Origin: Verrucomicrobiota bacterium
Lineage (GTDB): Bacteria; Verrucomicrobiota; Verrucomicrobiia; CAIQCK01
NCBI GenBank assembly: GCA_016219905.1
Contig: JACRKA010000351.1
Coordinates: 2,622 to 66,621 of the forward strand
Direction: 5' to 3'
DNA length: 64,000 nucleotides
Notes under the pieces: generated by a model
The model's input: the letters and a program-made list of their open reading frames with translations, nothing else
What the model was told of the DNA's origin: nothing
Databases searched by the model: none
Position numbers and translations under genes: made by a program
In this document: positions 10,392-61,135 of the stretch, piece by piece
Layout of the letters: each line of letters opens with the position of its first letter
Position numbering within the stretch: the stretch's first letter is position 1

Positions 10392-11140
<749 letters not shown>

Positions 11141-11144
<4 letters not shown>

Positions 11145-21619: not shown

Positions 21620-21626
21620 TTTACAG

Positions 21627-21783: not shown

Positions 21784-22283
21784 CACTTCTTCTGCCACTT
21801 CTTGATCGGGTCGGGCATCGTGCCGCCCAACTCCAACAGCTTCTCCTTGTTGAACATCATGTCTTTCCGCGAGAGGCCGGTCACCGAATACGGCCCGCGC
21901 AGGAAGATCGCCTGTTCAGGGCAGACCTCCTCGCAGTAACCGCAGAAAATGCAGCGGATCATGTCAATCTCGAACTCGTCCGGCGTCTTCTCGACCTTCT
22001 TATACTTCGCGTTGTCCGGGTAAGCCATCGGCTTGATCCGGATCGCCCGCGGCGGGCACACAAACTCGCAAAGCTGGCACGCGACGCACTTCACGCGGCC
22101 GTCCTCATCCTTCACCAGCACCGGCTGGCCGCGGTAGCCCGGCGGAATCTCCGGCTTCTGCTCCGGATAGCGCAGCGTCACCTTCTTCCGGAACAGATGC
22201 GAGAACGTCAGCATCATGCCGGAGATGATCGCCGGCAGATAGAGCCGTTCCCAGATCGTCAGCGGTTTGCGCTCGATCCTCAT
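21783..22283 (-). CDS. nuoI: NADH-quinone oxidoreductase subunit I (2x[4Fe-4S] ferredoxin).
   Basis: Two CxxCxxCxxxCP motifs (CVACQLCEFVCP; CIFCGYCEEVCP). ATG at 22283 overlaps the nuoH stop (ATGA). Confidence 0.92.
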   Translation of the reverse strand: MRIERKPLTIWERLYLPAIISGMMLTFSHLFRKKVTLRYPEQKPEIPPGYRGQPVLVKDEDGRVKCVACQLCEFVCPPRAIRIKPMAYPDNAKYKKVEKTPDEFEIDMIRCIFCGYCEEVCPEQAIFLRGPYSVTGLSRKDMMFNKEKLLELGGTMPDPIKKWQKK

Positions 22284-23344: not shown

Positions 23345-23353
23345 GGGTTAAAA

Positions 23354-23507
23354 GCCCGAAATCCGAAACTCGAAATCCGAAATAAATCCGAAATCCGAAG
23401 GCGGCAACGGCCAGACCGGCACCAACCGCTCTGGCGTGGACGTTTCGAGATTCGTTGTCTTCGTCATTCGAGTTTGTTTCGACTTTCGAGTTTCGACTTT
23501 CGGATTT
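23354..23507. repeat. Structured intercistronic palindromic repeat, copy 2 (nuoG-nuoH gap).
   Basis: Same architecture and heptad composition as copy 1 (cccgaaatccgaaactcgaaatccgaaataaatccgaaatccgaa ... cattcgagtttgtttcgactttcgagtttcgactttcggattt). It fills the 161-bp gap. Confidence 0.85.
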
Positions 23508-25149
23508 ACCCCAACTGCACGCCGCCGTCGCCGATCTTCTCCAGCGACAGGCCGGCAAACGGCTTCACGTTGGCCGCCATGTCCGCGAACAACGCCACGA
23601 TGTCCGCAAACCGGTCTGGTTGACCGGTCTCGCGCAACAGGTCGCGAAAGATTTCCCAATCGCTGCGCTCTTCGCCGCCGAGCGACACGGCCGGCCAGAC
23701 ACGCTGGACGCGCCCCTTGGCATTGGTGAACGTGCCGCGTTTCTCGGCGTAAGTCACGCCCGGCAGCACGAAATGCGCGGCCTTCGTCGTCTCCGTCGGC
23801 CTGAAATCCACGACCAGCAGCAGCGACAGCTTCGCCAACAGATCGGCGCCGATGCCGCGCCGGGTCACATCCTCCTGATGGACGACGAGCGTCTTGATCT
23901 TGCCAGCCTTGATGCCGTCGGCGATCGCCGCGAACTTCGACCCCATCGGCGCGGCTGCCACGTTGAAAATCTTCGCGCCGGCGCTGTTCGGGTTGCGGTC
24001 GGCGTTGACGAGGAAGCTGTCACCGTCCCACGTCCGCGGCACGCAATCGCTGACGCTGCCTTTCGCCAGCATCGAGAACAGGTAAAGCTCCTCGTTGGTC
24101 GCCCGCGCGCTGCCGACGAACGCCACGCTCGTGCGGTCGGCCAGCGCGGCCTTCAGCTTCGGCGCGAGTTGCTTCAGCGCATCGGCGTAGCTCGTCTCCT
24201 TGCCGCTGACGAACGCCTTCTTCAGCCGGCTCGCTGCGTTGATGTGTTTGTAGTTGTGACGGCCTGCGTCGCACATCCAGCATTCGTTGACGGCGTCGTT
24301 TTCGCGCGGCGTCTGGCGATAGACGACGTTCTCGCGCGACCAGATGACGATGTTGCAGCCCGTGGCGCAGCTCGTGCAGATGCTCTTGGTCTCCTTCAGG
24401 AACCAGACGCGCATCTTGAACCGGAAATCCTTGTCGGTGAGCGCGCCGACCGGGCAGAGGTCCACGGTGTTGAGGGAGTAATTGCCGGCGAGCTTCTTGC
24501 CAGGCCAGCAGGTCAACGTCGTGTGGCTGCCCCGGTTGGTGAAGCCGAGACAGTCGTCCTTTGCCACATCGCGCATGAACCGGATGCAGCGGCTGCACAG
24601 GATGCACCGCTCGTCGTCGAGCATCACGCGCAGGCCGAGGTCCACCTGTTTCGGCTTGTGAACCTTCTCCTCGCGGAACCGGGACGCGTCCTTGCCGAAC
24701 TCGACGGAATATTCCTGCAGCTTGCACTCGCCAGCCTGGTCGCAGATCGGGCAGTCGAGCGGATGGTTGATGAGGAAGAACTCCATCACCGAGTTCTGCG
24801 CCTGTTGCACAGCGGGCGAGTTGGTGACGACGACCATGCCCTCGGTGACCTGCGTGTTGCAGCCGATGGACAGGCGAGGCGCCATCGTGACCTTCGTCGT
24901 GCCGTCGGGGTTGAGGACAGGCTTGCCGTCGGGGCCGCGCATCGGGCCGCCCACCTCGACGAGGCACATGCGGCAGTTGCCGGAGATGGCGAGCTTCTTG
25001 TGATAGCAATAGTGCGGCACGAACACCCCGACCCTCTGGCCCGCTTCGATGAGGTTGGTGCCCTTCGGCACCTGCACCTTGATGCCGTTGATGGTCGCGT
25101 TGACCATCTCGGCGGCTGGCGTTGGAGTTGTCGGGTTGTCCGCCATCAT
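23506..25149 (-). CDS. nuoG: NADH-quinone oxidoreductase subunit G (75 kDa Fe-S subunit, short form).
   Basis: N-terminal 2Fe-2S and His-ligated 4Fe-4S motifs (CYHKKLAISGNCRMC; HPLDCPICDQAGEC). 547 aa. Confidence 0.92.
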   Translation of the reverse strand: MMADNPTTPTPAAEMVNATINGIKVQVPKGTNLIEAGQRVGVFVPHYCYHKKLAISGNCRMCLVEVGGPMRGPDGKPVLNPDGTTKVTMAPRLSIGCNTQVTEGMVVVTNSPAVQQAQNSVMEFFLINHPLDCPICDQAGECKLQEYSVEFGKDASRFREEKVHKPKQVDLGLRVMLDDERCILCSRCIRFMRDVAKDDCLGFTNRGSHTTLTCWPGKKLAGNYSLNTVDLCPVGALTDKDFRFKMRVWFLKETKSICTSCATGCNIVIWSRENVVYRQTPRENDAVNECWMCDAGRHNYKHINAASRLKKAFVSGKETSYADALKQLAPKLKAALADRTSVAFVGSARATNEELYLFSMLAKGSVSDCVPRTWDGDSFLVNADRNPNSAGAKIFNVAAAPMGSKFAAIADGIKAGKIKTLVVHQEDVTRRGIGADLLAKLSLLLVVDFRPTETTKAAHFVLPGVTYAEKRGTFTNAKGRVQRVWPAVSLGGEERSDWEIFRDLLRETGQPDRFADIVALFADMAANVKPFAGLSLEKIGDGGVQLG

Positions 25150-33954: not shown

Positions 33955-36900
33955 TCACTCCTCGGAAATCGTCGGCCGCTGCGCCGTCTGCGCCGGCGCA
34001 GACGGTGCGCTTTGACTCAGCAGCGCCTTCAACCGCTCGTTCAGCAAATAAATCTGGTGCGGCGCCTTTGCGCGGTTGTCCACGACGTAAAGCTGCTGCC
34101 GCGGCAGCAACTCTTCCATCATCTCCAGGTAAAACCGTTCCGCCTGCGCCTCACGCTGTGGGCCGGCCGCCTTGGCCGTCGCTGCGAACCGCGCCGCGCG
34201 GCCATTGCTATCCGCGATTTTCGCGTCCCGTGCCGCCGTCGCCGCCGTCACCGTGTTCGTTGCCGCTCCGCGCGCCAGAGGCACCTGCTCATTGCGGTAG
34301 CCCTCCGCTTCGTTGATGACGCGGCTCTTTTCCTCAATGGCGCTCGCCACGTCGCGATACGCGTCCACCAGCTCGATCGGCGGATGCACGTCCTGCAACC
34401 GCACGGCCTGCACCTCGATCCCTGCCGCGCACGCATCGAGCCGCCGTTGGATGAACTCTCGCACATGCTGCTCGACGAAGGGCCGGCCCGTCGTGAGCAA
34501 TCGCTCCGCTGCCGCGCGTCCCGCCGCCTCGCGCAGCGCCGCCTCGGCCAGCGCCTTCACCAGCGCCGCCGGCTCCGTCGCCGCGAACAGGTAAGCCACC
34601 GGGTCCTTCACCACGAAATGCGTCGTCAGTGTCACCGCCACGAAGTTCTCGTCGCCCGCCACCACCATCGCCTCCTCCGGCACGAACTGGAACCCACCCT
34701 TGTGCTCATAGTTCCATTCGTAGGCCGTCGGTTCAATAAACACATTCGTCTGCGCGGCGGCCGGCTGCGTCCATCGTTTCCAGAACGGCTGCGCCGCGAC
34801 AGCGCGCTCCACCGCGCGCAACCCGACCTGCACACGCTGCACGCGCTCCGGCGTCACGCGGAGCACTTCGTCGCACGGCCACGGCCAGACGTAACTCAGC
34901 CCCGGTTCCAGCACGGCAACCTTTCGGCCAAAATGCAACCGCACGCCGACCTCGTCCGGCTGGATCGCCGTCAAGCCGGTCACAAACCAACTCGCCGTTG
35001 CCGCCACGAGCGCCACGCCCAGCGCTTTCGCCGGTTGGTTGCGACAGAACCCCGCCACCGCATTGCCCTGCCGCCGACATCCCGCCGTCTGCTGCTGCCA
35101 CCACGCCGCGCCGCGCCGCGCCGTCTCGCCGCTCGACAAGAGTCGCAGCGAGTTGCACACCACCAGCAGCGAGGAAATCTGGTGCGTGACCGCCGCGCCG
35201 ATCGGCCCGATCACGCCTTGCGACGCCGCGAACACCGCCGCGCCATTGAAGCCGACGGCGAACCACCAGATGTTGTGCCGGATCGTGCGGATGACCTGCC
35301 GGCAAAACTCGATCGCGAAAGGGATTCTCCTCAAGTCGTCCTGCATCAGCACGACATCAGCCGCCTCGATGGTGATGTCCGTGCCCAACCCGTGCATCGC
35401 CACGCCCGTGTCCGCCGCCGCGAGCGCCGGCGCGTCGTTGATCCCGTCGCCGCACATCAACGTCGCCAGCCCGCGCTGCTGGAGCGCGCGGATGCGCGCG
35501 ACCTTGTCCGCCGGCAGCAAGCCCGCGCCCACCTCGCCGATGCCCACGCGCTCGCCAATGGCGCGCCCGACGCGTTCGTTGTCACCCGTCAGCAGGACAA
35601 TCTGCTCGATGCCACACCCACGCAGCAACGCCACCGTCTCGCGCGCTTCCTCGCGTGGGGGGTCGCTAAGGGCGACCGCGCCGATGACGGTAGCCGCCGA
35701 CGTATGGAGGCGGTCCGCTTTCTTACCAACAGAACTGTTGTCCACCTCCTCACGTCGGTGGCTACCGCGCGCCACCAGCACCACCGTGTGGCCCGCTTCC
35801 TCCAGCCGCTGGATGCGCGCCTCGGCTTCCGCGGAAATCGCCGCGCCCCGCTGCTGCATCAGCTGGCGGTTGCCCACCGCAATGAATGTGGGAGGGGCCT
35901 TAGCGCCCCGACCCGGCGCGTCCCACGCCCCAGGAACGGACTTGGAAGTCCGTTCTACTTCGGAGGCTGTGCTCGAAGTCGTAGAACGGACTTCCAAGTC
36001 CGTTCCATCGTCACGACGAACCTCCGCCACCGTGCCCATGCCCGGCACGGCTTCGAACTTATCCGCCCGCTTCAGCGCAATGCCCCGCCGCTGCGCCTCC
36101 GCCACGATCACCTGCGCCAGCGGATGCTCCGAGTGCGACTCCGCCGTCGCCGCGAGCGCGAGCAACGCGCCCTCATCGCCGCCAAACGCGACCGTCTCGA
36201 CGACGCGCGGTTTGCCGACGGTCAGCGTGCCGGTCTTGTCGAACACAACCGCGCGCGTGTTCGCGAGCTTCTCCAGATAGATGCCGCCCTTGACCAACAC
36301 GCCGGCCCGCGCGAGCCGGCCGATGCCCGCCGCGATGCCCGTCGGCGTCGCCAACACCAGCGCGCACGGACACGCCACGATCAGCACGCTGACGGCCCGG
36401 ATGAGCCGCGCGCTGAAGTCCCCGCCGGAAAAGAAAAACGTCGCAAGGCCCAGCGCGATGACCGTCGGCACGAACCATACCGCCCACTTGTCGGCGCGCT
36501 GATGGACACCCGCCTTTTTCTCCTCCGCCTCCTCGACGAGGTGAATGATCTTGCCGAGCGTGGAATCCTCACCGACGCCAGTGACGCGCACGTCGAGCGA
36601 GCCGACCTGGTTGATGGTGCCTGCGAACACCTTGTCTCCGCCGGCCTTGTTCACCGGGATGCTCTCGCCAGTGATCGCGCTCTGGTCCACCGCCGATGCG
36701 CCCGCGACGACCTCGCCGTCCACCGCAATGCGCTCGCCCGGCCGAACCATAACCACGTCGCCAGCACGGATGTTGTCCAGCGCCACCTCGACGATGTCGC
36801 CGCCGCGCCGGACGCTGGCGGTGCGCGGCACCAGCTTGATGAGCTTCTCGATCGCGCCGCGCGTGCGGTCCACGGCGAGTTCTTCGAGATAGCCGCCGAC

Positions 36901-37176
36901 CAGCATGATAAAGATGACCTCGGCGGCGGCGAAATACTGGCCGATGTAGAGCGCGGCGCACGCGGCGATGGCGATGGCCAAGTCGCTGGAAATCTCGCGG
37001 TGGAGCAGCCCCCATGCGGCCTCGCCGAAGATCTTGTAGCCACCGATCAGCGTGATCAGCACCGCCACATCAAACGGCCCGACATCCTTGATCCAGCCAA
37101 ACCAGTAAAGCGCCAGCAGCCCGCCGACGGCGGCGATGAACAGTGGCTTGCACAGTTTCTTGAGCGACGCTGGCAT
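33955..37176 (-). CDS. Heavy-metal-translocating P1B-type ATPase (CPC type) fused at its C-terminus to an HflK-like SPFH domain. It carries in-frame palindromic insertions.
   Basis: P-type motifs: TGES, CPCAL (metal-binding TM6), DKTGTLT, GDGINDAPAL. The P-type portion ends at NSLRLL. After that the frame continues into a TM segment plus an HflK-like SPFH domain (VRLHFGRKVAVLEPGLSYVWPWP...) of about 370 aa. Total 1073 aa. Confidence 0.8.
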   Translation of the reverse strand: MPASLKKLCKPLFIAAVGGLLALYWFGWIKDVGPFDVAVLITLIGGYKIFGEAAWGLLHREISSDLAIAIAACAALYIGQYFAAAEVIFIMLVGGYLEELAVDRTRGAIEKLIKLVPRTASVRRGGDIVEVALDNIRAGDVVMVRPGERIAVDGEVVAGASAVDQSAITGESIPVNKAGGDKVFAGTINQVGSLDVRVTGVGEDSTLGKIIHLVEEAEEKKAGVHQRADKWAVWFVPTVIALGLATFFFSGGDFSARLIRAVSVLIVACPCALVLATPTGIAAGIGRLARAGVLVKGGIYLEKLANTRAVVFDKTGTLTVGKPRVVETVAFGGDEGALLALAATAESHSEHPLAQVIVAEAQRRGIALKRADKFEAVPGMGTVAEVRRDDGTDLEVRSTTSSTASEVERTSKSVPGAWDAPGRGAKAPPTFIAVGNRQLMQQRGAAISAEAEARIQRLEEAGHTVVLVARGSHRREEVDNSSVGKKADRLHTSAATVIGAVALSDPPREEARETVALLRGCGIEQIVLLTGDNERVGRAIGERVGIGEVGAGLLPADKVARIRALQQRGLATLMCGDGINDAPALAAADTGVAMHGLGTDITIEAADVVLMQDDLRRIPFAIEFCRQVIRTIRHNIWWFAVGFNGAAVFAASQGVIGPIGAAVTHQISSLLVVCNSLRLLSSGETARRGAAWWQQQTAGCRRQGNAVAGFCRNQPAKALGVALVAATASWFVTGLTAIQPDEVGVRLHFGRKVAVLEPGLSYVWPWPCDEVLRVTPERVQRVQVGLRAVERAVAAQPFWKRWTQPAAAQTNVFIEPTAYEWNYEHKGGFQFVPEEAMVVAGDENFVAVTLTTHFVVKDPVAYLFAATEPAALVKALAEAALREAAGRAAAERLLTTGRPFVEQHVREFIQRRLDACAAGIEVQAVRLQDVHPPIELVDAYRDVASAIEEKSRVINEAEGYRNEQVPLARGAATNTVTAATAARDAKIADSNGRAARFAATAKAAGPQREAQAERFYLEMMEELLPRQQLYVVDNRAKAPHQIYLLNERLKALLSQSAPSAPAQTAQRPTISEE
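35689..35766. repeat. In-frame palindromic element (family A) inside the P-type ATPase gene.
   Basis: 78 nt (26 codons). Arms ggtagccgccgacgtatggaggcgg / ccacctcctcacgtcggtggctacc. Encodes SHRREEVDNSSVGKKADRLHTSAATV, placed by eye into the HTVVLVARG...IGAVAL loop of the ATPase; P1B-ATPases are not expected to carry such a segment there. Confidence 0.75.
35893..36007. repeat. In-frame palindromic element (family B) inside the P-type ATPase gene.
   Basis: About 115 nt. It contains two mutually reverse-complementary 22-nt near-palindromes (gaacggacttggaagtccgttc / gaacggacttccaagtccgttc) flanking tacttcgg..cgaagtcgta. Encodes TDLEVRSTTSSTASEVERTSKSVPGAWDAPGRGAKAPP, sitting between VRRDDG and TFIAVGN, which I equate from memory with the VDGRTVLVGN region of other CopA-type pumps. 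Confidence 0.7.
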
Positions 37177-38261: not shown

Positions 38262-38265
38262 CGGC

Positions 38266-38364
38266 GTTGGAGTGATGGAGTATGGGAGTGTTGGGGGGAT
38301 GGGGAGATAGAACTTTCCGCTTCAACAATCCACTACTCCACAACTCCAATACCCCATCACTCCA
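38266..38364. repeat. GGAGT-rich palindromic intergenic element (family E), copy 1, between the convergent galE and exported-protein genes.
   Basis: ttggagtgatggagtatgggagtgttgggg ... ccacaactccaataccccatcactccatc forms a long imperfect hairpin that abuts both stop codons. Confidence 0.75.
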
Positions 38365-40800
38365 TCATTCGAGCTTCGGCCCCTCGATCCGCTCGCCGCG
38401 CTGCTGGCGGGCCTGGTCGGCGACATCGAACGTGCCGTAGAACAGCGCGTTCGCATCCATCCACGTCACCAGCCGCTCCATATCCTCCGCGGTGAGCGCC
38501 ACGTCGTGGTGACCTTTCATCAGCATCTTCATCAACGGGCTGCCGCGCGCGCCGAAAAAGTCCGGCTGCGACATCGGCTCGCTGTTCACGACGCGGAAGT
38601 CGCCCGGCTTGCCACCCCACGCCGAGAACGACACGCGTCCGGCCAGCGCGTTGTAGGAGGCGCTGTAGCGGCCTTGCGGTTCGCCCGTCAGCGCAAGCTT
38701 GCCCTCCGGCTGCGGCCCGCTGTGGCAGGAGACGCAATGTTTGTTGAGCACGGGCTGGACGAGGATGGGATAACTCAACGGCTTCGAGCCGTCGGGGCCG
38801 GGCGCAATCGTCGAAGGCGGCCGTGACATGGCGATGGCGACGCGGCGTGAAGATGGAGTGTTGGCACGGTGCTCGTGGCAGCCGACACAAGAAACGCGCT
38901 CGCCCGGCTGGAGATAGGTGACGCTGCGCATCGTTTGCACCGCCTGGCCGCGCTCGTCGAGCGCCTGGAACGCGAGCGCGATATTGGCCGGCGCGCGGAA
39001 ATACGCCGAGCCATCCGCCTCGACAGGCACCGTGCCGAGCACTTGCTTGCCGGGCGAGGCATTCGCAACACCAACCGTCGGCGCGTTGATGTGCGGTGTC
39101 GTCTTGGGCAGCACCTGGATGACGCGCAGACGCGTGATGCGAGCATCCGGCAGCCGCGGCCATGAATCGTGAACATTTTCAACAAAGAAGGTGCCGTCGC
39201 GCGATGCGGCATCCTTGATGCGCGATTCGGATTCTTGTGCAAGCAACGGCAACGCCGGCGGCGTCGGACGCGCCCGCAGCGGCATCGGCCAGAGGCTGCA
39301 GATTTCCGAGTCGCGATAAAGCAGTTCCTTGTTGCCGAACGCATCCACGAGGTAGAGGCCGAACATGTTCGCCGGATTGGCGCTCGGCTCGCCGATCAGC
39401 GGGTCGAAACTGTAGGCGGCCAGAAAATACTTCTCCGACAACGGCCACGGCGTGCGATAGCAGTGGCCCGGCCACCGCGCCGCCTCCGGCGGAACAACTG
39501 GCGGGTTCTTCGGGCTGCCCGGCGCGCGCCAGAACGCCGGTTTCGCCGTGCCGTGCGACACGGGCTCCTCGCTCTCGGGAAACAGCGCGTCCGGCGTCAG
39601 CCGCGTGATTGGTTCCAGACCGTCCACCCCGCGCGTCACATCAAGCAGAATGATCGAGCCGGCGGTCATCGCATGGTGCGCCGCAGCGGTGGCCATCACG
39701 CGGCTCGACGCCGGCACGGCGCGGGCTTCCCACACGCCGACCGGGTTCAACGTGTTGTTGCCGTAGAACGCACGCACATCCGTGCCGTCCGGCCGCACCG
39801 TCCAGAGTTGCTGGTAATGCACTGCGTTGCGGTCCACGTAATCCCAACGCGTGTAGATGACACGGCCATCGTTGAGGACCGACGGGTCCCATTCGTGCGT
39901 CTCGTGAAACGAGACCGGATGCGGGTCGGAGCCGTCGCCGTTCGCGACAGCCAGCGTGTAGGTCGCGCACGGCCCGCGCCCGCAGCGATGGAACCCGCCG
40001 CGCCGCGTCGAGATGAAAACAATGCGGCCATCGGGCAAACAGCGTGACGCAAAATCGTCGAACGGCCCGTCTGTGAGCTGGCGCAGCCGCGAACCGTCTG
40101 CCGCCATCTCGTAGAGATGGTAATACCGGTCCAGACACGCCTCGCGATCCTTCGGCGCGGTCGGGGCGTTACAGTAGGCGAACAGGATGCGTTTGCCGTC
40201 GTAGGACACCTCCGGGAACTGGAAACTGCCGGGCGGCAGCGCATCCGGCGCAAGCTGGCGGCACCGCATCGTCCTGCCCGGCTCGTCGAGCGCGAACACC
40301 CCGCCGCCCGGCCGCGCGCAACTGCCGTAGTATTGCGTGAGCTGGTGGCTGAACATGCTCGGCACCTGCTTCACGAAAACCAGCGGCCCCGTTTTCGCGA
40401 GCGGATTGGCAAACACGATCTCGCGCCGCAACTCATGCGCCCGCCGCCAGAGGCTTTCCAAAGCAGGAGAATCCGCCATCGTAGGCGCCGACGTAAGGAG
40501 GCGAACGTCATGTGTTGAGCCGGAACGTTTCGCCTCCTCACGTCGGCGCCTACCGAACTCCCCGCGCAGCTTCTCCCATTGCCGCTGCAAATCTCCCAAC
40601 TCCACGCCCGCCGCCCCCAGATCGCTAATCAGCGCATCACCACGCTTGAAGAGCTTGGCGACCGCGTCCACGTAGGTGCCGGGATTACGCGCCGTGCCGA
40701 TGCCATCCTGTTTGCGCCAGTCGGCTTCAATCATCGCGCGCTCGTCCGCCCCAAGCACGCTCGTGACTGCCATGAAGAATGACAATGCAAATCGCCGCAT
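38365..40800 (-). CDS. Exported protein with a TolB-like beta-propeller region and two C-terminal CxxCH (putative c-type haem) motifs. It carries an in-frame palindromic insertion.
   Basis: Signal peptide MRRFALSFFMAVTSVLGA. Repeated DG.(R/I).F.S propeller-like units. CVGCHEH and CVSCHSG motifs near the C-terminus. Confidence 0.65.
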   Translation of the reverse strand: MRRFALSFFMAVTSVLGADERAMIEADWRKQDGIGTARNPGTYVDAVAKLFKRGDALISDLGAAGVELGDLQRQWEKLRGEFGRRRREEAKRSGSTHDVRLLTSAPTMADSPALESLWRRAHELRREIVFANPLAKTGPLVFVKQVPSMFSHQLTQYYGSCARPGGGVFALDEPGRTMRCRQLAPDALPPGSFQFPEVSYDGKRILFAYCNAPTAPKDREACLDRYYHLYEMAADGSRLRQLTDGPFDDFASRCLPDGRIVFISTRRGGFHRCGRGPCATYTLAVANGDGSDPHPVSFHETHEWDPSVLNDGRVIYTRWDYVDRNAVHYQQLWTVRPDGTDVRAFYGNNTLNPVGVWEARAVPASSRVMATAAAHHAMTAGSIILLDVTRGVDGLEPITRLTPDALFPESEEPVSHGTAKPAFWRAPGSPKNPPVVPPEAARWPGHCYRTPWPLSEKYFLAAYSFDPLIGEPSANPANMFGLYLVDAFGNKELLYRDSEICSLWPMPLRARPTPPALPLLAQESESRIKDAASRDGTFFVENVHDSWPRLPDARITRLRVIQVLPKTTPHINAPTVGVANASPGKQVLGTVPVEADGSAYFRAPANIALAFQALDERGQAVQTMRSVTYLQPGERVSCVGCHEHRANTPSSRRVAIAMSRPPSTIAPGPDGSKPLSYPILVQPVLNKHCVSCHSGPQPEGKLALTGEPQGRYSASYNALAGRVSFSAWGGKPGDFRVVNSEPMSQPDFFGARGSPLMKMLMKGHHDVALTAEDMERLVTWMDANALFYGTFDVADQARQQRGERIEGPKLE
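40481..40553. repeat. In-frame palindromic element (family A), copy 2, inside the exported-protein gene.
   Basis: Arms gtaggcgccgacgtaaggaggcgaacg / cgtttcgcctcctcacgtcggcgcctac share the core CCGACGT..GGAGGCG / CGCCTCCTCACGTCGG with the copy in the ATPase. Encodes about RRRREEAKRSGSTHDVRLLTSAPT. Confidence 0.75.
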
Positions 40801-40848: not shown

Positions 40849-42966
40849 TCATTCCTCCCACAGTCCGCGGATTTTGCCGCGGGCGTCCGTTTCCTGAGCA
40901 ACCGATTCCGCGCCGCCGGCATCCACTTTTGGCAACTTCAACGTCACTTGCTCGAACTTCGCCCGCACGTCGGTTGGGATGAAGCGGGTCAGTTGCGCGA
41001 ATGTGTGGCGGTCGCCCATCTCGTGCTTCGTGGCGTAGTAGCGCAGCGGGAAACAGACGTAGAGCCAGTTGCGCGCGCGGGTCAACGCAACGTAAAGCAG
41101 CCGCCGCTCCTCTTCGATCTCGTCCGCGTCGCCGGTGCTCAGGTCGCTGGGGATGATGCCGTCGGTGGCGTGGATGAGGAAGACCACGTCCCACTCGCAA
41201 CCTTTCGCCGAGTGGATCGTGCTCAGCGTCATCCAGTCGTCGTCCTTGCGCGGCGGGCCAGCCCAATCGCCGGTCGCGCCCGGCGGGTCGAGCGTCAGCT
41301 CGGAGAGGAACTGCTCGCGGGACTCGAAGCCCGCCGCGATGACGCCCAACTGCTCCAAGTCGCGCACGCGGACCTCGGCGTGGTCATAGACCTCGTGGAA
41401 GATCGGGTCGTAGAATTGTCGGATGCGCTCAATCTGCGTGCCCAAACTGATGATGGTGGGGCGAGGCTCTGCCGAGCCTTCGCCACTGTCTTCATGGGCA
41501 TGGCTCGGCGGAGCCTCGCCCCACCCCTTTGGCGACAGCTTAATCTCACCCAAATCGCGCAGCAGGCCGCACAATGCGATGAACCGCTCCCGCGCCGCAG
41601 GCGGCACGGGACAGTGCGACAGCGCGCGCAGGTCATGGCCGTTGGCGGCAAGGAAGCGCCAGATGCGCTTCGCGCCAGCCGGGCCGACACCCTCCAGCAG
41701 GTGGAGGACGCGGAACCAGCTCATCTCGTCGCGCGGGTTCTCCAGGATGCGCAGCAGGGCGAGCAAGTCCTTCACGTGGGCGGCTTCGAGGAACTTCAGG
41801 CCGCCGAATTTCACGAACGGGATGTTGCGCCGCGTCAACTCCACCTCCAACGCGTCGCTCCAGTGGGCGGTGCGCACGAGCACAGCCATCCGGCGCAACG
41901 GCACGCCGGCCTCGTAGTGCTCGAGGATTTTCTTGCAGACGAACCGCGACTGCTGCGCCTCGTCGAGGCAGTTGACCAGCATCGGCCGCTGTTCGCTGCG
42001 GCGGTCGCTCCAGAGGTCCTTGGTGAACCGCTCCGGCGCGCGGGCGATGACGGCGTTGGTGGCGGCGAGGATCGGCTGCACGCTGCGGTAGTTCTGCTCG
42101 AGCGTGATGATGGCCGCGCCGGGGAACTGTTTCGGGAAATCGAGGATGTTGCGGACCGTCGCGGCGCGGAAGCTGTAGATGCTCTGCGCGTCGTCGCCGA
42201 CGACGCTGAGGTTGCGGTGCGGCCCAGCCATCTTCAGCAAGATGTCAGCTTGCAGCCTGTTCGTGTCTTGGTATTCGTCCACGAGGATGTGGCTAAAGCG
42301 GGCGGCGACGCGCGGACCGGCCTCGGCCGTGTCCATCAGGTGCCGCCAGACCAGCAGCAGGTCGTCGTAGTCGAGCACGTGCCGGTCGTGCTTGCGGTCG
42401 GTGTAGGCCGCGAACAGTTGCTTCAATTCCGCCTCATGCTCCGCGCACCACGGGAAATGGCGCTTGAGCACACGACCGAGCGGCTGCCGGGCGTTGGCGC
42501 AGCGTGAGTAGATGTCGAGCAGCGTGCCTTTCTTCGGGAACCGCTTCTCCTTCGAGTGCAAGCCGAGGTCATGACGGACGAGGTTGAGCAGGTCCTCGGC
42601 GTCGGATTGGTCGAGCACGGTGAAATCGGGCGCGAGGCCGACGGCGCGGCCGTGGATGCGGAGGAGACGGTTGGCGATGGCGTGGAAGGTGCCGCCCCAG
42701 ACGCGTGAAACGTGAAACGTGAAACGTGAAACGTGACAGGAATGTTCGGCGCGGCGGATCATCTCGTGGGCCGCGCGGCGGGTGAAGGTGAGCAGGAGGA
42801 TGCGCCCGGCTGGCACGCCGCGCTGGAGCAGGCAGGCGACACGGGCGGCGAGGGTCTTGGTCTTGCCGGTGCCCGCGCCGGCGATGATCAGGAGCGGGCC
42901 GTCGCCATGCGTGGCCGCGGCGCGCTGCTGCGGGTTGAGTTCATCCAGCCAGGCAGAGTCGGGCAT
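40849..42966 (-). CDS. UvrD/PcrA/Rep family ATP-dependent DNA helicase.
   Basis: Motif I GAGTGKT, Ia LLLTFTRRAA, II VDEYQDTN, GTFH, and downstream motifs. 705 aa. Confidence 0.9.
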   Translation of the reverse strand: MPDSAWLDELNPQQRAAATHGDGPLLIIAGAGTGKTKTLAARVACLLQRGVPAGRILLLTFTRRAAHEMIRRAEHSCHVSRFTFHVSRVWGGTFHAIANRLLRIHGRAVGLAPDFTVLDQSDAEDLLNLVRHDLGLHSKEKRFPKKGTLLDIYSRCANARQPLGRVLKRHFPWCAEHEAELKQLFAAYTDRKHDRHVLDYDDLLLVWRHLMDTAEAGPRVAARFSHILVDEYQDTNRLQADILLKMAGPHRNLSVVGDDAQSIYSFRAATVRNILDFPKQFPGAAIITLEQNYRSVQPILAATNAVIARAPERFTKDLWSDRRSEQRPMLVNCLDEAQQSRFVCKKILEHYEAGVPLRRMAVLVRTAHWSDALEVELTRRNIPFVKFGGLKFLEAAHVKDLLALLRILENPRDEMSWFRVLHLLEGVGPAGAKRIWRFLAANGHDLRALSHCPVPPAARERFIALCGLLRDLGEIKLSPKGWGEAPPSHAHEDSGEGSAEPRPTIISLGTQIERIRQFYDPIFHEVYDHAEVRVRDLEQLGVIAAGFESREQFLSELTLDPPGATGDWAGPPRKDDDWMTLSTIHSAKGCEWDVVFLIHATDGIIPSDLSTGDADEIEEERRLLYVALTRARNWLYVCFPLRYYATKHEMGDRHTFAQLTRFIPTDVRAKFEQVTLKLPKVDAGGAESVAQETDARGKIRGLWEE
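42703..42735. repeat. Tandem GTGAAAC heptad repeat (4.5 units) embedded in-frame in the helicase gene.
   Basis: cgtgaaacgtgaaacgtgaaacgtgaaacgtga. Translated on the minus strand as HVSRFTFHVSRV between helicase motifs Ia and GTFH. Confidence 0.8.
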
Positions 42967-53239: not shown

Positions 53240-54244
53240 TTACGAAGACAGTTCAGGCTTGGCTTCCCTCAACATCAAGTCATTCAGCGCCCGCTTCGGC
53301 TCTTTGCCATCGTAGATCACACTACACACCTCATTCGTAATGGGAGCTTCCACCCCCAATTTCTGCGCGAGACGCTGGGCCGCTTTCGCAGTCCGCACGC
53401 CCTCGGCGACCATCACCATCGAGTCAAGAATCTGCTTCAGGTTCTCGCCGCGACCAAGCCGCTCGCCCACGCCGCGGTTACGGCTCCACTTGCTGAAACA
53501 CGTCACGATGAGATCACCGATACCGCTCAAGCCGAAGAACGTCTCCCGTCGCGCGCCCAGCGCCACGCCCATGCGCGCCATTTCCGCCTGGCCGCGTGTG
53601 ACCAGCGCGGCTTTCGCGTTGTCGCCGAGACCGAGGCCGTCGCCGATGCCGGCGGCGATGGCGATGACGTTCTTGAGCGCGCCGCCGAGTTCGACGCCGA
53701 TGACGTCGTCATTGGTATAGACACGAAACCGCTCGGTCATGAACGTCCGCTGCACCAGCGCGGCCAGCGCGCTGTCACGCGAAGCCGCTACGACCGCCGT
53801 CGGCACGCCACGGGCAACCTCTTCCGCATGGCTCGGCCCGCTCAGCGCGGCGATTGGCGCGTCAGGCTGCTGCTCGGCAATGATCTGGGTCATCCGCTCG
53901 TGCGTTTCGTTCTCGATGCCTTTGGCCACGCTGACCACTGGCACCTTCAACCGCGGCAGCTTGCCGCAGACCGAGCGCATCACATGGGATGGCGAAGCCA
54001 GCACGACCAAATCCGCGCCTTCGACCGCCCACGCCAGGTCACAACCCAACTCGATCTCCGGCGGCACGGTCACGCCCGGCAGGAACCGGACGTTCTGCCC
54101 CTGCGCGCGGATTTCGTCCACGGATTGCTGCTCGTAGCTCCACAGCCGGATGCGCCACGGCGGCGACTCGCGCCGGCCCTTGCCGTGCAGCAGCACACTC
54201 AACGCCGTTCCCCATCCGCCCGCCCCGATGATCGCGATGTTCAT
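53240..54244 (-). CDS. gpsA: NAD(P)H-dependent glycerol-3-phosphate dehydrogenase.
   Basis: Start MNIAIIGAGGWGTAL (ATG 54244, overlapping the plsY stop). Conserved GALKNVIAIAAG. Confidence 0.92.
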   Translation of the reverse strand: MNIAIIGAGGWGTALSVLLHGKGRRESPPWRIRLWSYEQQSVDEIRAQGQNVRFLPGVTVPPEIELGCDLAWAVEGADLVVLASPSHVMRSVCGKLPRLKVPVVSVAKGIENETHERMTQIIAEQQPDAPIAALSGPSHAEEVARGVPTAVVAASRDSALAALVQRTFMTERFRVYTNDDVIGVELGGALKNVIAIAAGIGDGLGLGDNAKAALVTRGQAEMARMGVALGARRETFFGLSGIGDLIVTCFSKWSRNRGVGERLGRGENLKQILDSMVMVAEGVRTAKAAQRLAQKLGVEAPITNEVCSVIYDGKEPKRALNDLMLREAKPELSS

Positions 54245-54849
54245 GCGTCTTTCTTTTCGAACTTGTGTTCCGCGCCCGCCAGCAACCGTCGAATGTTCGA
54301 CGCGTGCCGGATGATTGTCACGACGGCGACGAACGCCGCAAAGCCTGTCAGCGTGGCGTTCCGAGAAAACGCGAACACGAGCGCAGGCAGCGCGGCCACC
54401 GAGACAATGGACGCCAGCGACACGTAGCGCCAGACCAGAAAGACGATCAGCCAGATGACCGCCGCAATCAGTTGCGCCGGCCAGCAGATGGCCAGGAAGC
54501 CGCCGATGGCCGCCGCGACGCCCTTGCCGCCCTTGAAGCCGAGCCACGGCGTGTAGTTGTGGCCGAGGATGACGCAAAGGCACGTGACGATTTGGAGCGC
54601 CGAGACATCGAGCGACGGCAGGAGCCGCGGCGCGAGCAACGCCGGCAGGAATCCCTTCAGCGCGTCCACGACAAACACGCCGCGGCCGGCCCAGCGGTTG
54701 ACGCTGCGCAGGACGTTGGTCGCGCCGATGTTACCGCTGCCAACTTCGCGGATGTCCACGCCGTAGGCGCGCGCCACGAGGAAGCCGGTGGGGAAACTGC
54801 CGATCAGGAAGGCGGCGAGGGCGAGGGCGAAGTAGGCCAGTAGGTCCAT
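54241..54849 (-). CDS. plsY: Glycerol-3-phosphate acyltransferase PlsY (acyl-phosphate dependent).
   Basis: 5-TM protein with SGNIGATN and HNYTPWLGFKGGKGVA motifs. Confidence 0.92.
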   Translation of the reverse strand: MDLLAYFALALAAFLIGSFPTGFLVARAYGVDIREVGSGNIGATNVLRSVNRWAGRGVFVVDALKGFLPALLAPRLLPSLDVSALQIVTCLCVILGHNYTPWLGFKGGKGVAAAIGGFLAICWPAQLIAAVIWLIVFLVWRYVSLASIVSVAALPALVFAFSRNATLTGFAAFVAVVTIIRHASNIRRLLAGAEHKFEKKDA

Positions 54850-54851
54850 GA

Positions 54852-54907
54852 GGCGTGAAACGTGAAACGTGAACGTGAAACTCTTACGTTTTACGTTTTA
54901 CGTTTCA
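54852..54907. repeat. GTGAAAC heptad-repeat hairpin (family C) exactly filling the gap between plsY and the upstream gene.
   Basis: gcgtgaaacgtgaaacgtgaacgtgaaac tcttac gttttacgttttacgtttcac: about 25-bp inverted arms of GTGAAAC/GTTTTAC units. Confidence 0.8.
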
Positions 54908-56383
54908 CTACTTGAACGTCGGCAGGAAGCGGTAATAAACCTCCAGCATCATGCACAGCAGCGTGGTGTGATACACCGGCTGGTCTTTCGGATCGGTGAC
55001 CTGCCTCCAGCCCGTCGCGGGCGGGCCGCCAGCAGGGCCAGGCACCGGCCATGAACCGTCCGCCTTTTGGTAGCGGATGATCTCCTCGCGGAACATGCGG
55101 TTCCATGCCGTCCAGTAGCTGCCGCCTGCCTGGAAAAGCGCCTGCGTCATGTAATACCATCCGTAGCTGCTCCCCTCGCCGCCTTTTTCCCACTCGCACT
55201 TGTAGGTGCTCAAGGTCCGCTGTCCACCCTTGGCCTCCTTCGAGTCACCCGCATTGATGAATTGCATGCAAAGCACACCCACACCGACCAGCGCGGGAGA
55301 GCCGCCGCCCCTGACCGCGTAACCGAACTGGTGCTTCTTGTCATCATAGACGCCCCGCAGGAACTCCAGCGCCTTCTGCAAGCATGCATCAATGCCCGCC
55401 ACCTTCACGCCCGCCATCTTCGCCGCCTTGAGCGCCTGCACGTTCCAACCGACGATGGACGTGTCGCCGCCGGGCCGCTTCGGATCCTCGCGCCCCACCT
55501 TGTTGTAACCGTAATCCCACGATCCATTTGGCGCCTGGTTGCTCACGATGAGTTGAACCGCGCCCTCCAGCACCGTCAACAGGTCGCTGATCTGCGTCAG
55601 CGCATAATCCTCCGCCAGCGCATACGTCGCGATCGCGTGCTGATACTCCACGTGCTCGGTGGCCAGTTTGTTCCTGTTCTTCTTGCCGACCTCCATCAAC
55701 CACTGCACGCCCTTCTGCACCGTCTCGCCATAATGCTGGCTGTCCTGCCGTTCGCCGTGCGCCAGGAACGTCAGCAGCGCCAGGCCCGTCATGGAGGATC
55801 GGTAGTGCCCGCCCCACGAACCGTCCGGGTTCTGGTTCGCCTTCAGCCAGTCCAGCGCCCGCAACACCGCGCCCTCCCCCTGCCGCGTGCCGCCAAACTT
55901 CCCCATCGCATTACCCCTCTCGGAGCCGAACCGGTTCTGGTAAAGGCTGGACACCTTCACGTTCGCGAGATTCTTGATGAGGCTCTTTGACAAATCCCCC
56001 GACGTCACCGGCGCAGCCACCGTCGGCGTCACAATGCTCACCGCCGTCGGCGATGGCAACGGCGTCGCCACCGTGATCGGCCGGGCCGCAGTCGCTGAGG
56101 TCGTCGGTTGCTTGGTCGTCGCCAGATTCTGCTCCTTCCGCTGCTCTGGCGGGGGCGGGGGCGGCACACTGTCATTCGCCTTCTGGGCCGAGGGCGCTAC
56201 GAAGACGGATACCATCCCGCTCTGCGTGCGAGTCACTTCGTAGGTGCCGAACAGGAGGATGAACAGCAGGTGCAACAGCAACGCGACCAGATAGAACGGC
56301 ACGCTGCGGAAACGCGTCAGAATCAGGTCAGTCCACGCCTGCGGATTCAACCACGATGATACGGATCCAGTTGGCGCTTGCAC
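54908..56383 (-). CDS. Membrane-anchored protein with prenyltransferase / squalene-oxidase-like (terpenoid cyclase) repeats.
   Basis: N-terminal TM anchor, a Pro-rich linker (PPPPPPEQ) and repeated DGSWG / NGSWDYG / DGSWPVPG alpha-alpha toroid repeat signatures. Confidence 0.7.
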   Translation of the reverse strand: MQAPTGSVSSWLNPQAWTDLILTRFRSVPFYLVALLLHLLFILLFGTYEVTRTQSGMVSVFVAPSAQKANDSVPPPPPPEQRKEQNLATTKQPTTSATAARPITVATPLPSPTAVSIVTPTVAAPVTSGDLSKSLIKNLANVKVSSLYQNRFGSERGNAMGKFGGTRQGEGAVLRALDWLKANQNPDGSWGGHYRSSMTGLALLTFLAHGERQDSQHYGETVQKGVQWLMEVGKKNRNKLATEHVEYQHAIATYALAEDYALTQISDLLTVLEGAVQLIVSNQAPNGSWDYGYNKVGREDPKRPGGDTSIVGWNVQALKAAKMAGVKVAGIDACLQKALEFLRGVYDDKKHQFGYAVRGGGSPALVGVGVLCMQFINAGDSKEAKGGQRTLSTYKCEWEKGGEGSSYGWYYMTQALFQAGGSYWTAWNRMFREEIIRYQKADGSWPVPGPAGGPPATGWRQVTDPKDQPVYHTTLLCMMLEVYYRFLPTFK

Positions 56384-58494: not shown

Positions 58495-58498
58495 AAGA

Positions 58499-58580
58499 TT
58501 GGAGTGGTGGGGTGATGGAGTATTGGAGTGTTGGGTTGTCTGTGGAAGTTACCCATTACTCCAATACTCCAACACTCCAT
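58499..58580. repeat. GGAGT-rich palindromic intergenic element (family E), copy 2, between the glucan phosphorylase stop and the ADH start.
   Basis: ttggagtggtggggtgatggagtattggagtgttggg ... cccattactccaatactccaacactccat: the same GGAGT(A/G)TTGG-unit hairpin as at 38266-38364. Its right arm overlaps the TAA stop. Confidence 0.75.
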
Positions 58581-61135
58581 TACCCCCATAGGATCAGCCC
58601 CGTGTCGAGCGGGTCGCCGAGGTCGGGATGAGCGGGGACGACGCGGACGGCGAAGCCGTGGCGGCCGGTGGCCTGGCAGGGGATCGCTCCGATGAAGCGG
58701 TGCGTGCCGTCGGAATTGGACCGGACGAGTTTCATCGGGACCGATCTGGCACGCGCGAGGCGTCCGTCGGCTTCCAGCGGGCCGTAGAAAAGTTGAAGGG
58801 CGATGTTCTCCGGCTTCAGGTCGCCGACGTGGACGGTGGCGGCGACGGGCAGTTCGGCGCCGACGGCCTGCTCGCCTTCGGCGCACTGCTGGACGCTGGA
58901 AAGCCGGACTTTGCCCCAGTTCTGCGCGATGTAATGCTTCCAGCCGGTGAACTGGCGGCAGGCGCCCATGTTGTCGCTGGCCAGGCGCTGGTGGCGTTGC
59001 GCGCAGGGCACGTAGGATTGCTCGACGTATTCCTGCACCATGCGATGGCTGTTGAAGATCGGCCCGATGGTGCTCATGGAGTTCTTCATCATGGCGATCC
59101 ATCGCCGCGGCAACCCGTCGGCGCCGCGCTCGTAGAACAGCGGGACGATCTCCTTCTCCAGCAGGTCGTAGAGCGCGCGGCTCTCGACTTCGTCCTGATA
59201 GTTCGGGTCGGTGTAGTCCTCGCCGTGGCCGATGCTCCAGCCGTTGTCGGCCTGCTCGACTTCGCACCACCAGCCGTCGAGCGTGCTGACGTTGAGCGCG
59301 CCGTTGACGGTGGCCTTCATGCCGCTGGTGCCGCTGGCCTCCAGCGGCCGGCGCGGCGTGTTGAGCCACACGTCGCAACCCTGCACGAGGTAGTGGGCCG
59401 TGTTGACGTCGTAGTCTTCGAGGAAGACGACCCGGTTGCGGATGTCGGATTCGCGGGCAAACTGGACGATCTGGCGGATGAGTTCCTTGCCGGGGCCGTC
59501 ATTGGGATGCGCCTTGCCGGCAAAGATGATCTGGACGGGCAGGTCGCTGTTGGTCAGGAGCCGCTTGAACCGTTCCGCATCGCGCAGCAGCAGGTTGCCC
59601 CGCTTGTAGGTGGCGAACCGCCGCGCGAAGCCGATGGTCAGGACTTTCGGATCGAGCACCTCGTCGGCGTGGGCGGTCTCGCTGATCATCGCGCCCCGGC
59701 GGCGAAGCTGCTCGCGCAACCGGCGGCGGGCATAGGCCACGAGCCGTTCGCGCCGCCGCTCGTGGGTGCGCCAGAGTTCCGCGTCGGGGATTTCCTTGAT
59801 GCCCTGCCAGACGCTCTGGTCGGTCGGCTCCTCCTGCAGGCGCAGGCCGAGGTAGGTCTCAAACAAAGCGGCCATCTCGCGCGACAGCCACGAATGGGAG
59901 TGCACGCCATTGGTGATGGCCGTGATGGGCACCTCCTGCTCCGGCACCTCCGGCCACATCCGCTGCCACATGCGGCGGGAGACTTCGCCGTGGAGTTTGC
60001 TGACGCCGTTGCGCTTCGCGGAGAACCTCAGCGCCAGCACGGCCATGTTGAAGTTTTCGGTGTTGTCGGCGGGGTTCTGGCGCCCCAAGCCGAGGAAGTC
60101 GTTGCGATCCAGGCCGAGTTCCTGCCGGAAGCCGTGGAAGTAATGCTCCATCAGGTCCGCATGGAACACGTCAATGCCCGCCGGCACCGGCGTGTGCGTC
60201 GTGAACACACCGCCCGCCGACACGATCTCGCGCGCTTCCGCGAAACTCAGGTGGTTCTCCTTCATCTTGCGGCGCACGCGCTCCAGGCCGAGGAACGCGG
60301 CGTGGCCCTCGTTCATGTGGCAGACGTGCGAGTTCAACCCCAGCGCCTGCAGCGCGCGGCAACCGCCGATGCCGAGCATGATCTCCTGCCGGATGCGCAT
60401 GTCGCTGTCGCCGCCGTAGAGCGAGGCGGTGATGTCGCGGTCGGCGGGCGAGTTCGACTCGATGTTCGTGTCGAGCAGGTAAAGGGGGACGCGGCCGACC
60501 TGCGCCCGCCAGATCTGCGCCCGCACCGTGCGGCCCGGATAGTCGAGGCTGATGATCAGCGGCAGGCCCTCCGGGTTGCGGACCAGCGTGATCGGCATGT
60601 TGTAGAAATCGTTGTCGGGATACACCTCGAGCTGCCAGCCGTTGGCGTCGAGGCGCTGATGGAAATAGCCGCGCCGGTAGAGCAGGCCGACGCCCACCAA
60701 CGGCACGCCGAGGTCGCTCGCGCTCTTGAGATGGTCGCCCGCGAGCACGCCGAGGCCGCCCGAATAGATCGGCAGGCACTCGTGGATGCCGAACTCCAGC
60801 GAGAAGTAGGCGATCGCAGCCGGGTTGTTGCCGTCGTGGACCTTGTGATACCACGTCGTGTCGTTCATGTAGCGTTCGAGCCGGGCCATCACGCGCTTCA
60901 TGTGCGCCAGGAACCCGCCATCGTTCTTGAGCACGCCCAGCCGTTCCTGGCTGATCCGGCCCAGCATCAGGATCGGGCTGTGATACGTCTCCCGCCACAG
61001 GTCGCGATCCATGCGCAGAAACAGCTCGATCGCCTCGGCGTTCCACGACCACCACAAATTGTAGGCCAGCGTCCGGAGCGGACTCAGTTCCTCCGGCAGC
61101 GACGCAACCACTTCAAACGTGCGTATGTTCTTCAT
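58580..61135 (-). CDS. Alpha-glucan phosphorylase (GT35 family, maltodextrin/glycogen phosphorylase-like).
   Basis: 851 aa. PLP-Lys region (TSGMKATVNGALNVSTLDGWW) and conserved GT35 core (GFTTHTPVPAG, EASGTSGMK). Confidence 0.88.
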   Translation of the reverse strand: MKNIRTFEVVASLPEELSPLRTLAYNLWWSWNAEAIELFLRMDRDLWRETYHSPILMLGRISQERLGVLKNDGGFLAHMKRVMARLERYMNDTTWYHKVHDGNNPAAIAYFSLEFGIHECLPIYSGGLGVLAGDHLKSASDLGVPLVGVGLLYRRGYFHQRLDANGWQLEVYPDNDFYNMPITLVRNPEGLPLIISLDYPGRTVRAQIWRAQVGRVPLYLLDTNIESNSPADRDITASLYGGDSDMRIRQEIMLGIGGCRALQALGLNSHVCHMNEGHAAFLGLERVRRKMKENHLSFAEAREIVSAGGVFTTHTPVPAGIDVFHADLMEHYFHGFRQELGLDRNDFLGLGRQNPADNTENFNMAVLALRFSAKRNGVSKLHGEVSRRMWQRMWPEVPEQEVPITAITNGVHSHSWLSREMAALFETYLGLRLQEEPTDQSVWQGIKEIPDAELWRTHERRRERLVAYARRRLREQLRRRGAMISETAHADEVLDPKVLTIGFARRFATYKRGNLLLRDAERFKRLLTNSDLPVQIIFAGKAHPNDGPGKELIRQIVQFARESDIRNRVVFLEDYDVNTAHYLVQGCDVWLNTPRRPLEASGTSGMKATVNGALNVSTLDGWWCEVEQADNGWSIGHGEDYTDPNYQDEVESRALYDLLEKEIVPLFYERGADGLPRRWIAMMKNSMSTIGPIFNSHRMVQEYVEQSYVPCAQRHQRLASDNMGACRQFTGWKHYIAQNWGKVRLSSVQQCAEGEQAVGAELPVAATVHVGDLKPENIALQLFYGPLEADGRLARARSVPMKLVRSNSDGTHRFIGAIPCQATGRHGFAVRVVPAHPDLGDPLDTGLILWG

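Follow-up and report, generated by a model that had tools for sequence, protein, structure and literature searches.

A hairpin upstream of plsY and a tandem array inside a helicase gene, both built from the heptad GTGAAAC, are best read as heptanucleotide simple sequence repeats (SSRs) of an already known class. We consider it fairly probable that both are products of slippage, the first being a recent intercistronic hairpin and the second an old array held in its reading frame. Heptad arrays of this kind would arise, turn over and become homogenised through replication slippage, and would be tolerated mainly between genes.

Results and discussion

A heptad unit shared by two sites

The window, i.e. 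the whole stretch of 64,000 nt analysed here, contains 14 copies of GTGAAAC where 5.9 are expected, a count of 14 or more being reached by none of 100 shuffled sequences. Eight of the 14 copies fall within the helicase array and the plsY hairpin. Scanning the window with the 14-mer GTGAAACGTGAAAC (up to two mismatches allowed) yielded eight matches against 0.26 expected, all of them confined to 42705-42739 and 54855-54908. The unit recurs at these two sites in 64 kb, at each of them in three or more head-to-tail copies (Tandem Repeats Finder (TRF) copy numbers of 4.7 for the helicase array and of 4.1 and 3.1 for the two arms of the hairpin). The proposal of the initial annotation that one and the same 7-mer builds both is supported by the counts as well as by the 14-mer scan. 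Copying from one site to the other was considered and rejected, as the ends shared by the two (..GTTTCAC GC(G/C)TC..TGG) are too short to be told apart from a chance likeness.

The hairpin in the plsY spacer

The plsY hairpin (E5 in the numbering of the window's hairpins) is an inverted pair of arrays. Read on the plus strand, it starts with a purine-rich 5' arm, GTGAAAC GTGAAAC GTGAAC GTGAAAC (54855..54881), followed by the loop TCTTAC (54882..54887) and the 3' arm GTTTTAC GTTTTAC GTTTCAC (54888..54908). One of the four units of the 5' arm is a base short, and two units of the 3' arm carry a T in place of the C that is needed for a Watson-Crick pair. The two mispairs are G·T on the plus strand and C·A on the minus strand. 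Given the deleted base, the two G·T pairs and longest gap-free arms of 19 nt that are 89% complementary, the hairpin is less regular than the "perfect-looking" structure first described. As RNA it folds with -33.2 kcal/mol on the plus strand (z = -7.6) and with -22.4 kcal/mol on the minus strand (z = -4.2); as DNA it folds with about -17 kcal/mol on either strand. Each of these values surpasses shuffled sequences by far.

Both neighbouring genes lie on the minus strand. The downstream gene is plsY, encoding glycerol-3-phosphate acyltransferase (54241..54849; TIGR00023, 167.9 bits against a cut-off of 137.2), with its ATG at 54847-54849. The upstream gene is DUF6288 / prenyltransferase-repeat-like (54908..56383), and the G of its stop codon TAG (54908-54910) also belongs to the first repeat unit. 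The spacer from this stop to the plsY ATG (54850..54907, minus strand) measures 58 nt and is spanned end to end by E5, exactly as claimed at the outset. No Shine-Dalgarno-like sequence was found in these 58 nt. A consensus terminator scan called no intrinsic terminator at E5, where the tails are GCCUCAUGG on the minus and UACUUGAA on the plus strand and hold no U-tract, and the terminator and promoter scan at E5 returned nothing relevant. A search of the whole window against Rfam 15 at gathering score matched a tRNA-Ala(GGC) alone (46848-46923, minus strand), which is the sole tRNA in the window. A permissive Rfam scan of E1, E2, E4 and E5 gave no match for E2 and E5, and for E1 and E4 it gave sub-threshold matches to generic miRNA-precursor hairpins.

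Relatives of the spacer were reached via the neighbours of the DUF6288 gene in three other genomic loci (L203, L204 and L205), the PlsY relatives among the matches listed being at most 49% identical. The order DUF6288-plsY-gpsA is kept in L203 and L205, where the DUF6288 proteins are 80% and 57% identical to that of the window; in L204 (DUF6288 63% identical) the contig stops in a cut ORF of 77 residues just past the spacer. The plsY spacers of the three relatives are 100, 30 and 82 nt long, plsY starts with GTG, and neither a heptad repeat nor a hairpin is present in any of the three. Differences in presence and length between related genomes are a feature of heptanucleotide SSRs, and here they take the form of the absence of E5 from L203, L204 and L205. 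Since three relatives are without it at the same locus, E5 is a lineage-specific replacement of the spacer, of recent origin, and not a conserved regulator of plsY. An assembly artefact was rejected as its origin because E5 sits between genes in an order that is conserved in relatives.

Transcribed together with the minus-strand genes, E5 would fold into a stem of some 24 bp that starts at the stop codon of the upstream gene and ends 5 nt short of the plsY ATG. Such a stem would most likely act as an intercistronic modulator that damps read-through, protects the 3' end of the upstream mRNA or affects access to the start codon. Ribosomes that terminate at the stop codon of the upstream gene would be expected to melt the outer part of the stem. 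The stem may also tie initiation at plsY to termination of the upstream ORF. Any such effect would be dispensable, as relatives do without E5, and it is probably modest as well.

Five hairpins of tandem heptads and octads

Besides E5 the window holds four more hairpins whose arms are tandem units of 7 or 8 nt, and the five together represent three unit families. E1 (21621..21796, about 175 nt) and its paralogue E2 (23353..23510, about 158 nt) have arms of CCGAAAT-type heptads, and both are intergenic between minus-strand genes. E1 extends from a stop codon to about 5 nt short of a start codon, and E2 likewise runs from a stop codon to a few nt before a start codon. Their arms are about 93% identical and share irregularities, while their cores differ. 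E3 (38264..38370) has arms of TGGAGTRW-type octads and lies between convergent genes. E4 (58498..58590) belongs to the same octad family and fills a spacer of 85 nt between minus-strand genes. Each unit family is seen twice if the helicase array is counted with E5 as the GTGAAAC pair, and all remaining well-matched TRF arrays of period 7 or 8 sit in the intergenic hairpins, whose arms repeat a single unit in opposite orientations. Apart from E3, each hairpin is flanked by co-directional genes of the minus strand; it starts at the stop codon of the upstream gene or overlaps it, and leaves 2-7 nt to the downstream ATG. A Shine-Dalgarno-like sequence is present at none of these four. From 12402 to 64000 nearly all genes of the window lie on the minus strand, with one exception at 37290-38261.

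The z-scores of the window's hairpins run from -3.8 to -7.6, those of strong stems, and the plus-strand RNA folds of E3 and E4 reach -52 and -55 kcal/mol. The plus-strand RNA is the better folder in E3, E4 and E5. Over all five hairpins the mismatches comprise 16 of the G·U type, 11 of the C·A type and 27 of the transversion type, without significant asymmetry. Because the mismatch types show no strand preference, the better plus-strand fold provides no evidence for an antisense RNA, and strand-specific selection on an RNA was dropped as an explanation on the same counts (16 vs 11). A further fold lies close to E1 within a minus-strand coding region: 21461-21600 reaches -66 kcal/mol on the minus strand versus -45 on the plus strand, with z of about -5 against the G+C trend and no match in Rfam.

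With five elements of three families in 64 kb and arms of E1 and E2 that are 93% alike, the set would, judged from these similarities, look more like the outcome of copying whole elements than of independent slippage at each place. One may go further and regard the hairpins as miniature mobile elements (MITE-, REP- or REPIN-like) that were copied whole into short spacers, the tandem units being merely internal to their arms. The pairing of three families with two members each, the irregularities shared by E1 and E2 despite different cores, the absence of E5 from three relatives and the filling of spacers from stop to start codon by the four co-directional hairpins would all agree with this, as would the GTAG that overlaps one end of E5 in a window in which GTAG-type REP-like palindromes are abundant. 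The defining marks of such elements are a different matter. REP/BIME sequences are G+C-rich palindromes of 20-40 nt with a GTAG or CGTC end, whereas the arms of E1-E5 measure 25-50 nt and are A+T-richer, and a GTAG end occurs in E5 alone, where it overlaps the stop codon. The hairpins have inverted arms as MITEs do, but E1, E2 and E5 show no target-site duplication at their flanks. E1-E5 have no end tag in common, arm lengths and unit counts vary between copies, and no transposase is linked to the hairpins. Moreover, the GTRAAAC unit forms plain one-sided arrays in many phyla (loci among the matches listed). Mobility of whole elements is on this balance an unlikely explanation, and we retain slippage-made SSRs as the preferred reading. 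CRISPR arrays were excluded by the period of 7 nt without spacers.

REP-like palindromes also occur in frame within coding sequences of the window. Two of them (35688-35767 and 35933-36006) lie in a P-type-ATPase-like ORF of 1073 aa (33955..37176, minus strand), where they encode ..GSHRREEVDNSSVGKKADRLHTSAATV.. and ..DGTDLEVRSTTSSTASEVERTSKSVPG..; one of the two is a perfect inverted repeat of 26 nt that begins with GTAG. A palindrome of the same family as 35688-35767 starts with GTAG inside an ORF of 811 aa (38365..40800, minus strand); it spans 40481-40553 and has arms of 25 nt that are 96% complementary.

The helicase and its in-frame array

The second GTGAAAC site lies in an ORF of 705 aa (40849..42966, minus strand). 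By its Pfam domains and PDB matches the product is a UvrD/PcrA-family SF1 helicase; the equivalog scores stay below cut-off for PcrA (409 vs 911), UvrD (356 vs 1144) and Rep (321 vs 951). The in-frame heptad tract (42700..42736, minus strand) encodes HVSRFTFHVSRV just before WGGTFH, and the translation across the array runs ..EHSCHVSRFTFHVSRVWGGTFH.. in the helicase. Read on the minus strand, the tract consists of four perfect ACGTTTC units (42707-42734) and one ACGCGTC (42700-42706), followed by TGG. TRF reports CGTGAAA × 4.7 with 100% matches at 42704-42736, confirming that a tandem array sits inside the UvrD-like ORF. The loop that it encodes is variable and stands after motif Ia (TFTRRAAHEM) and before WGGTFH, in agreement with the position initially assigned between motif Ia and GTFH; when the loop is aligned with solved structures of UvrD1 and UvrD, the tract falls opposite a gap. 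The array lies in the sole orientation that can be translated: (GTTTCAC)n is free of stops in all frames, whereas (GTGAAAC)n has TGA in all three.

As had been argued from the length of the unit, the frame constrains the copy number. With one or two units more or fewer, translation stops early, at residue 128-186 of 705; with three, the frame is kept. Heptanucleotide SSRs within ORFs cause phase variation in some host-adapted bacteria. The array could by analogy be a contingency locus at which slippage by one unit switches the helicase off and on, with a reversible repair or recombination phenotype. Four perfect in-frame heptads and the truncating effect of small unit changes are what such a locus would require, and misalignment does occur at the site, as units have been homogenised in two lineages (see below).

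For the array site the proteins of 19 relatives were aligned, and the DNA of eight orthologues was read in heptads backwards from the TGG of WGGTFH. In five orthologues (70-83% identity) one can make out five heptads in the register of the window. These read ACGTTTC ACGTTTT ACGCATC ACGCTTC ACGCGTC in L002 (76%), ACGCTAC ACGCTCT ACGCAAA ACGCTTC CCGTGTT in L237 (74%), ACGCTTC ACATTCC ACGCGTC ACGCTCC GCACGTC in L239 (70%) and ACTCGTC × 3, ACTCCGC, CCGCGTC in L238 (73%; helicase gene at 10001-12043), while L001 (83%) has a decayed version of the heptads. Autocorrelation at k = 7 places the array site at about the top 1% of gene windows in seven of nine genes, and of these nine it is absent in one relative of 80% and in one of 60% identity. 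Orthologues of 69-83% identity for the most part retain a period of 7 nt at the array site, and in those of 70-83% identity the loop there counts 12-17 residues. It differs in length between orthologues by 6, 9 or 12 nt, apart from a much larger insertion in P0019, and wherever the DNA of an orthologue was read, these differences fall upstream of the array. Not one length difference of 21 nt or of whole units was found at the array site among the 19 aligned orthologues.

The alignment does not bear out a repeat-encoded segment specific to this lineage, given loops of similar length and heptads in the same register. A helicase with the same peptide and no nucleotide repeat, which the initial annotation would have counted against slippage, exists in part: in the closest orthologue (P0002, 83%) the nucleotide repeat is mostly decayed and the related peptide, HALRPTLNAARV, has equal length. 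In the window ACGTTTC is repeated four times and in L238 ACTCGTC three times, which on comparison indicates that different units were homogenised independently in the same register. The array is thus an old in-frame heptad microsatellite of five units, fixed in unit number and subject to concerted evolution. Slippage or conversion acts on it to some extent, since units are homogenised in two lineages, and either slippage or intra-array conversion may have made the units uniform without a net change in length. The presence of a perfect ACGTTTC × 4 beside decayed arrays in closer relatives is such that an extra homogenising process is needed. The loop itself would be a poorly constrained part of the protein surface, and selection on the reading frame would hold the five units.

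The absence of whole-unit differences among the 19 orthologues speaks against the view that the array is maintained for frequent switching of its length. The tract has only four perfect units, its host is an environmental Verrucomicrobia MAG, the protein cluster of the helicase has one member on one contig with no variant alleles known, and like repeats are common in non-coding DNA here, so that the presence of one needs no special function. Phase variation of the helicase is on the comparative evidence not favoured, and we regard a contingency locus as very unlikely compared with the preferred frame-held microsatellite.

The same ORF holds an insertion at 41455-41525, a G+C-rich palindrome with 31-nt arms that are 87% complementary, translated in frame as ..PKGWGEAPPSHAHEDSGEGSAEPRPT.. 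in the helicase. It is present in P0004-7, 14, 17 and 19 and absent in P0002, 3, 8-12, 15 and 16.

Heptad arrays in other genomes

Three tandem copies of GTRAAAC were found in at least 120 DNA stretches of species-representative genomes, against about 2 expected by our own estimate. Among the matches listed the hosts are mostly Chloroflexota; others are Verrucomicrobiota, Planctomycetota, Lentisphaerota, Nitrospirota, Desulfobacterota, Gamma- and Betaproteobacteria, Acidobacteriota, Gemmatimonadota and Bacteroidota, and further groups occur as well. Many of these loci also carry adjacent arrays of other heptads. Period 7 dominates the short tandem repeats, with 241 arrays in 850 kb of scan loci (among the matches listed); in 311 kb of unrelated control loci it accounts for 9 of 20 arrays, with many different units. 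On viral contigs (GTGAAAC)3 occurs at 15 loci and three control heptads of the same composition at 2, 8 and 5. A special status for GTGAAAC was rejected, as control heptads likewise lie far above chance and many units co-occur; GTGAAAC is favoured modestly, a few-fold at most. The spread across phyla reflects a general abundance of heptamers, because heptad triples of equal composition likewise exceed chance by a wide margin.

By a crude ORF test, 121 of 141 arrays in the scan loci (among the matches listed) lie outside long ORFs. Within 45 nt upstream of a long ORF that starts with ATG, (GTTTYAC)n is found for 46 of 139 arrays and the opposite orientation for 11 of 139 (among the matches listed), a bias with p = 3e-6 where random positions give a rate of 15%. 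Inverted pairs of heptads or octads are common. Their purine-rich arm comes first in 29 cases versus 5 over the scan loci listed and the window. All five hairpins of the window obey this rule, and it holds for GTRAAAC and for other units on either strand. Comparable hairpins occur in co-directional spacers of L081 (verrucomicrobial) and L047 (Rhodanobacteraceae), 24 and 44 nt before an ATG, respectively. At 6784-6818 of L021, from another Verrucomicrobia MAG, GTAAAAC (GTGAAAC)4 forms GTTTYAC × 5 on the strand of the gene; the array lies directly upstream of the sequence for a prepilin-like N-terminus (..HRAFTIIEVLIAVALL..), with which it appears to share its frame.

The purine-first polarity together with the orientation bias at start codons suggests some selection, such that a purely mutational origin falls short. 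The hairpins might accordingly be selected RNA devices, either factor-independent bidirectional terminators or attenuators, or stems for translational coupling, with the pyrimidine-rich 3' arm proposed as a weak RNA:DNA hybrid or as a ribosome landing site beside the start codon. Both regularities would fit such a role, and so would the strength of the stems and their extent from the upstream stop to 2-7 nt before the ATG without a Shine-Dalgarno sequence; the repeats of Xanthomonas, which lie near the end of the neighbouring ORF, are known to be transcribed (PMC4692102). E5, however, is not conserved at the orthologous site, has neither U-tract nor terminator call and belongs to no Rfam family, and strong termination 5 nt ahead of plsY-gpsA would shut off genes that are essential. 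The mismatch types also lack the strand preference that selection on one RNA strand would leave. Selected RNA devices thus appear rather unlikely as a general explanation, and slippage-made SSRs remain our preferred account.

Another conceivable explanation is that the heptads serve as binding sites, with a DNA- or RNA-binding protein recognising the tandem 7-nt units. Heptamer-binding proteins have been speculated on by MacGregor (PMC4679880) and in a study of Nostoc (bioRxiv 10.1101/2022.06.06.494920), and arrays near start codons are widespread. A single specific binder is at odds with the dozens of unrelated units in the same genomes; a candidate gene for it did not turn up, and very distant phyla share the unit without any trace of a factor transferred along with it. 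We consider a dedicated heptad binder extremely improbable, and the SSR reading is kept.

Comparison with known repeat systems

Heptanucleotides have been described as the most abundant long SSRs in many prokaryotes (Mrazek 2007, as cited in PMC4679880 and PMC4692102), and polymerase slippage is named in the latter two sources as a proposed cause of heptamer SSRs. A close parallel to the window's elements is GGGAATC of Xanthomonas (Rehm et al. 2015, PMC4692102), with 70-75 convergent inverted pairs per genome that are able to form stem-loops. Of these repeats 89-93% are intergenic, they lie near the end of a neighbouring ORF and are transcribed, and the arrays differ in length and sequence between close relatives (PMC4692102). 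Shared with the window are tandem 7-nt units in a high-GC genome, an intergenic location (about 90% there) close to ORF ends and mostly between co-directional genes, inverted pairs with the purine-rich arm first and variation between close relatives. In contrast, the units here are GTGAAAC, CCGAAAT or TGGAGTRW, which are unable to form G-quadruplexes, the spacer is taken up completely by the hairpin as far as the start codon, and the host is a verrucomicrobial MAG.

The TAACTGA repeats of Beggiatoaceae form arrays a few nt upstream of start codons in one orientation and without a Shine-Dalgarno sequence (MacGregor 2015, PMC4679880). These repeats, found in marine Beggiatoaceae, Cyanobacteria and Bacteroidetes, resemble ours in their arrays of 2-6 copies just upstream of starts, their one preferred orientation, the lack of a Shine-Dalgarno sequence, the occurrence of some copies within ORFs and a scattered phylogenetic distribution. 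They consist of another unit, however, and almost all are one-sided (169 direct sets and 1 indirect), whereas the inverted form dominates in the window. In Nostoc, heptamers stand next to start codons or run into them, among others at recF and recO, and their effects on reporters are modest (bioRxiv 10.1101/2022.06.06.494920); heptamer repeats of Calothrix are placed with the same cyanobacterial STRR class (as cited in PMC4692102). Contiguous units at or over start codons, there including positions upstream of DNA repair genes, are common to the cyanobacterial repeats and ours, but the former are direct arrays in low-GC genomes with measured reporter effects.

ORFs with SSR-mediated phase variation in host-adapted bacteria (reviewed in PMC11868660) have in common with the helicase ORF a non-triplet repeat in which a one-unit change destroys the frame; they differ in that the helicase has a short tract of fixed unit number across orthologues in a free-living organism. 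REP/BIME sequences (Di Nocera et al. 2013, PMC3733652) are likewise imperfect intergenic palindromes between co-directional genes, and REP-like ones exist in the window, yet their G+C-rich stems of 20-40 nt lack internal tandem units, whereas E1-E5 are longer, A+T-richer and built of 7-8-nt repeats. On every feature testable, the elements of the window fit the known class of heptanucleotide SSRs.

Conclusions

Among long simple repeats, heptamers are the commonest in many bacteria, and our analysis adds a verrucomicrobial case in which the hairpin form is dominant and whole spacers are filled from stop to start codon. Further additions are two regularities across phyla, a purine-rich arm that comes first and a GUUUYAC side that faces the start codon, which hint at selection, and a clean in-frame heptad microsatellite whose five units have been kept while the units were homogenised independently in two lineages. 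A bolder and in our view unlikely generalisation would hold inverted heptad and octad hairpins in at least eight phyla to be slippage-assembled RNA elements, acting as attenuators or coupling stems with the purine arm 5', from a stock of repeats that is occasionally absorbed as stop-free, loop-coding sequence. If this were true, a universal rule would apply to such RNA elements, namely that the pyrimidine-rich arm stands next to the start codon. The main consequence of our results is that the suggestion of a phase-variable repair helicase is removed, and the current understanding of these repeats is left unchanged.
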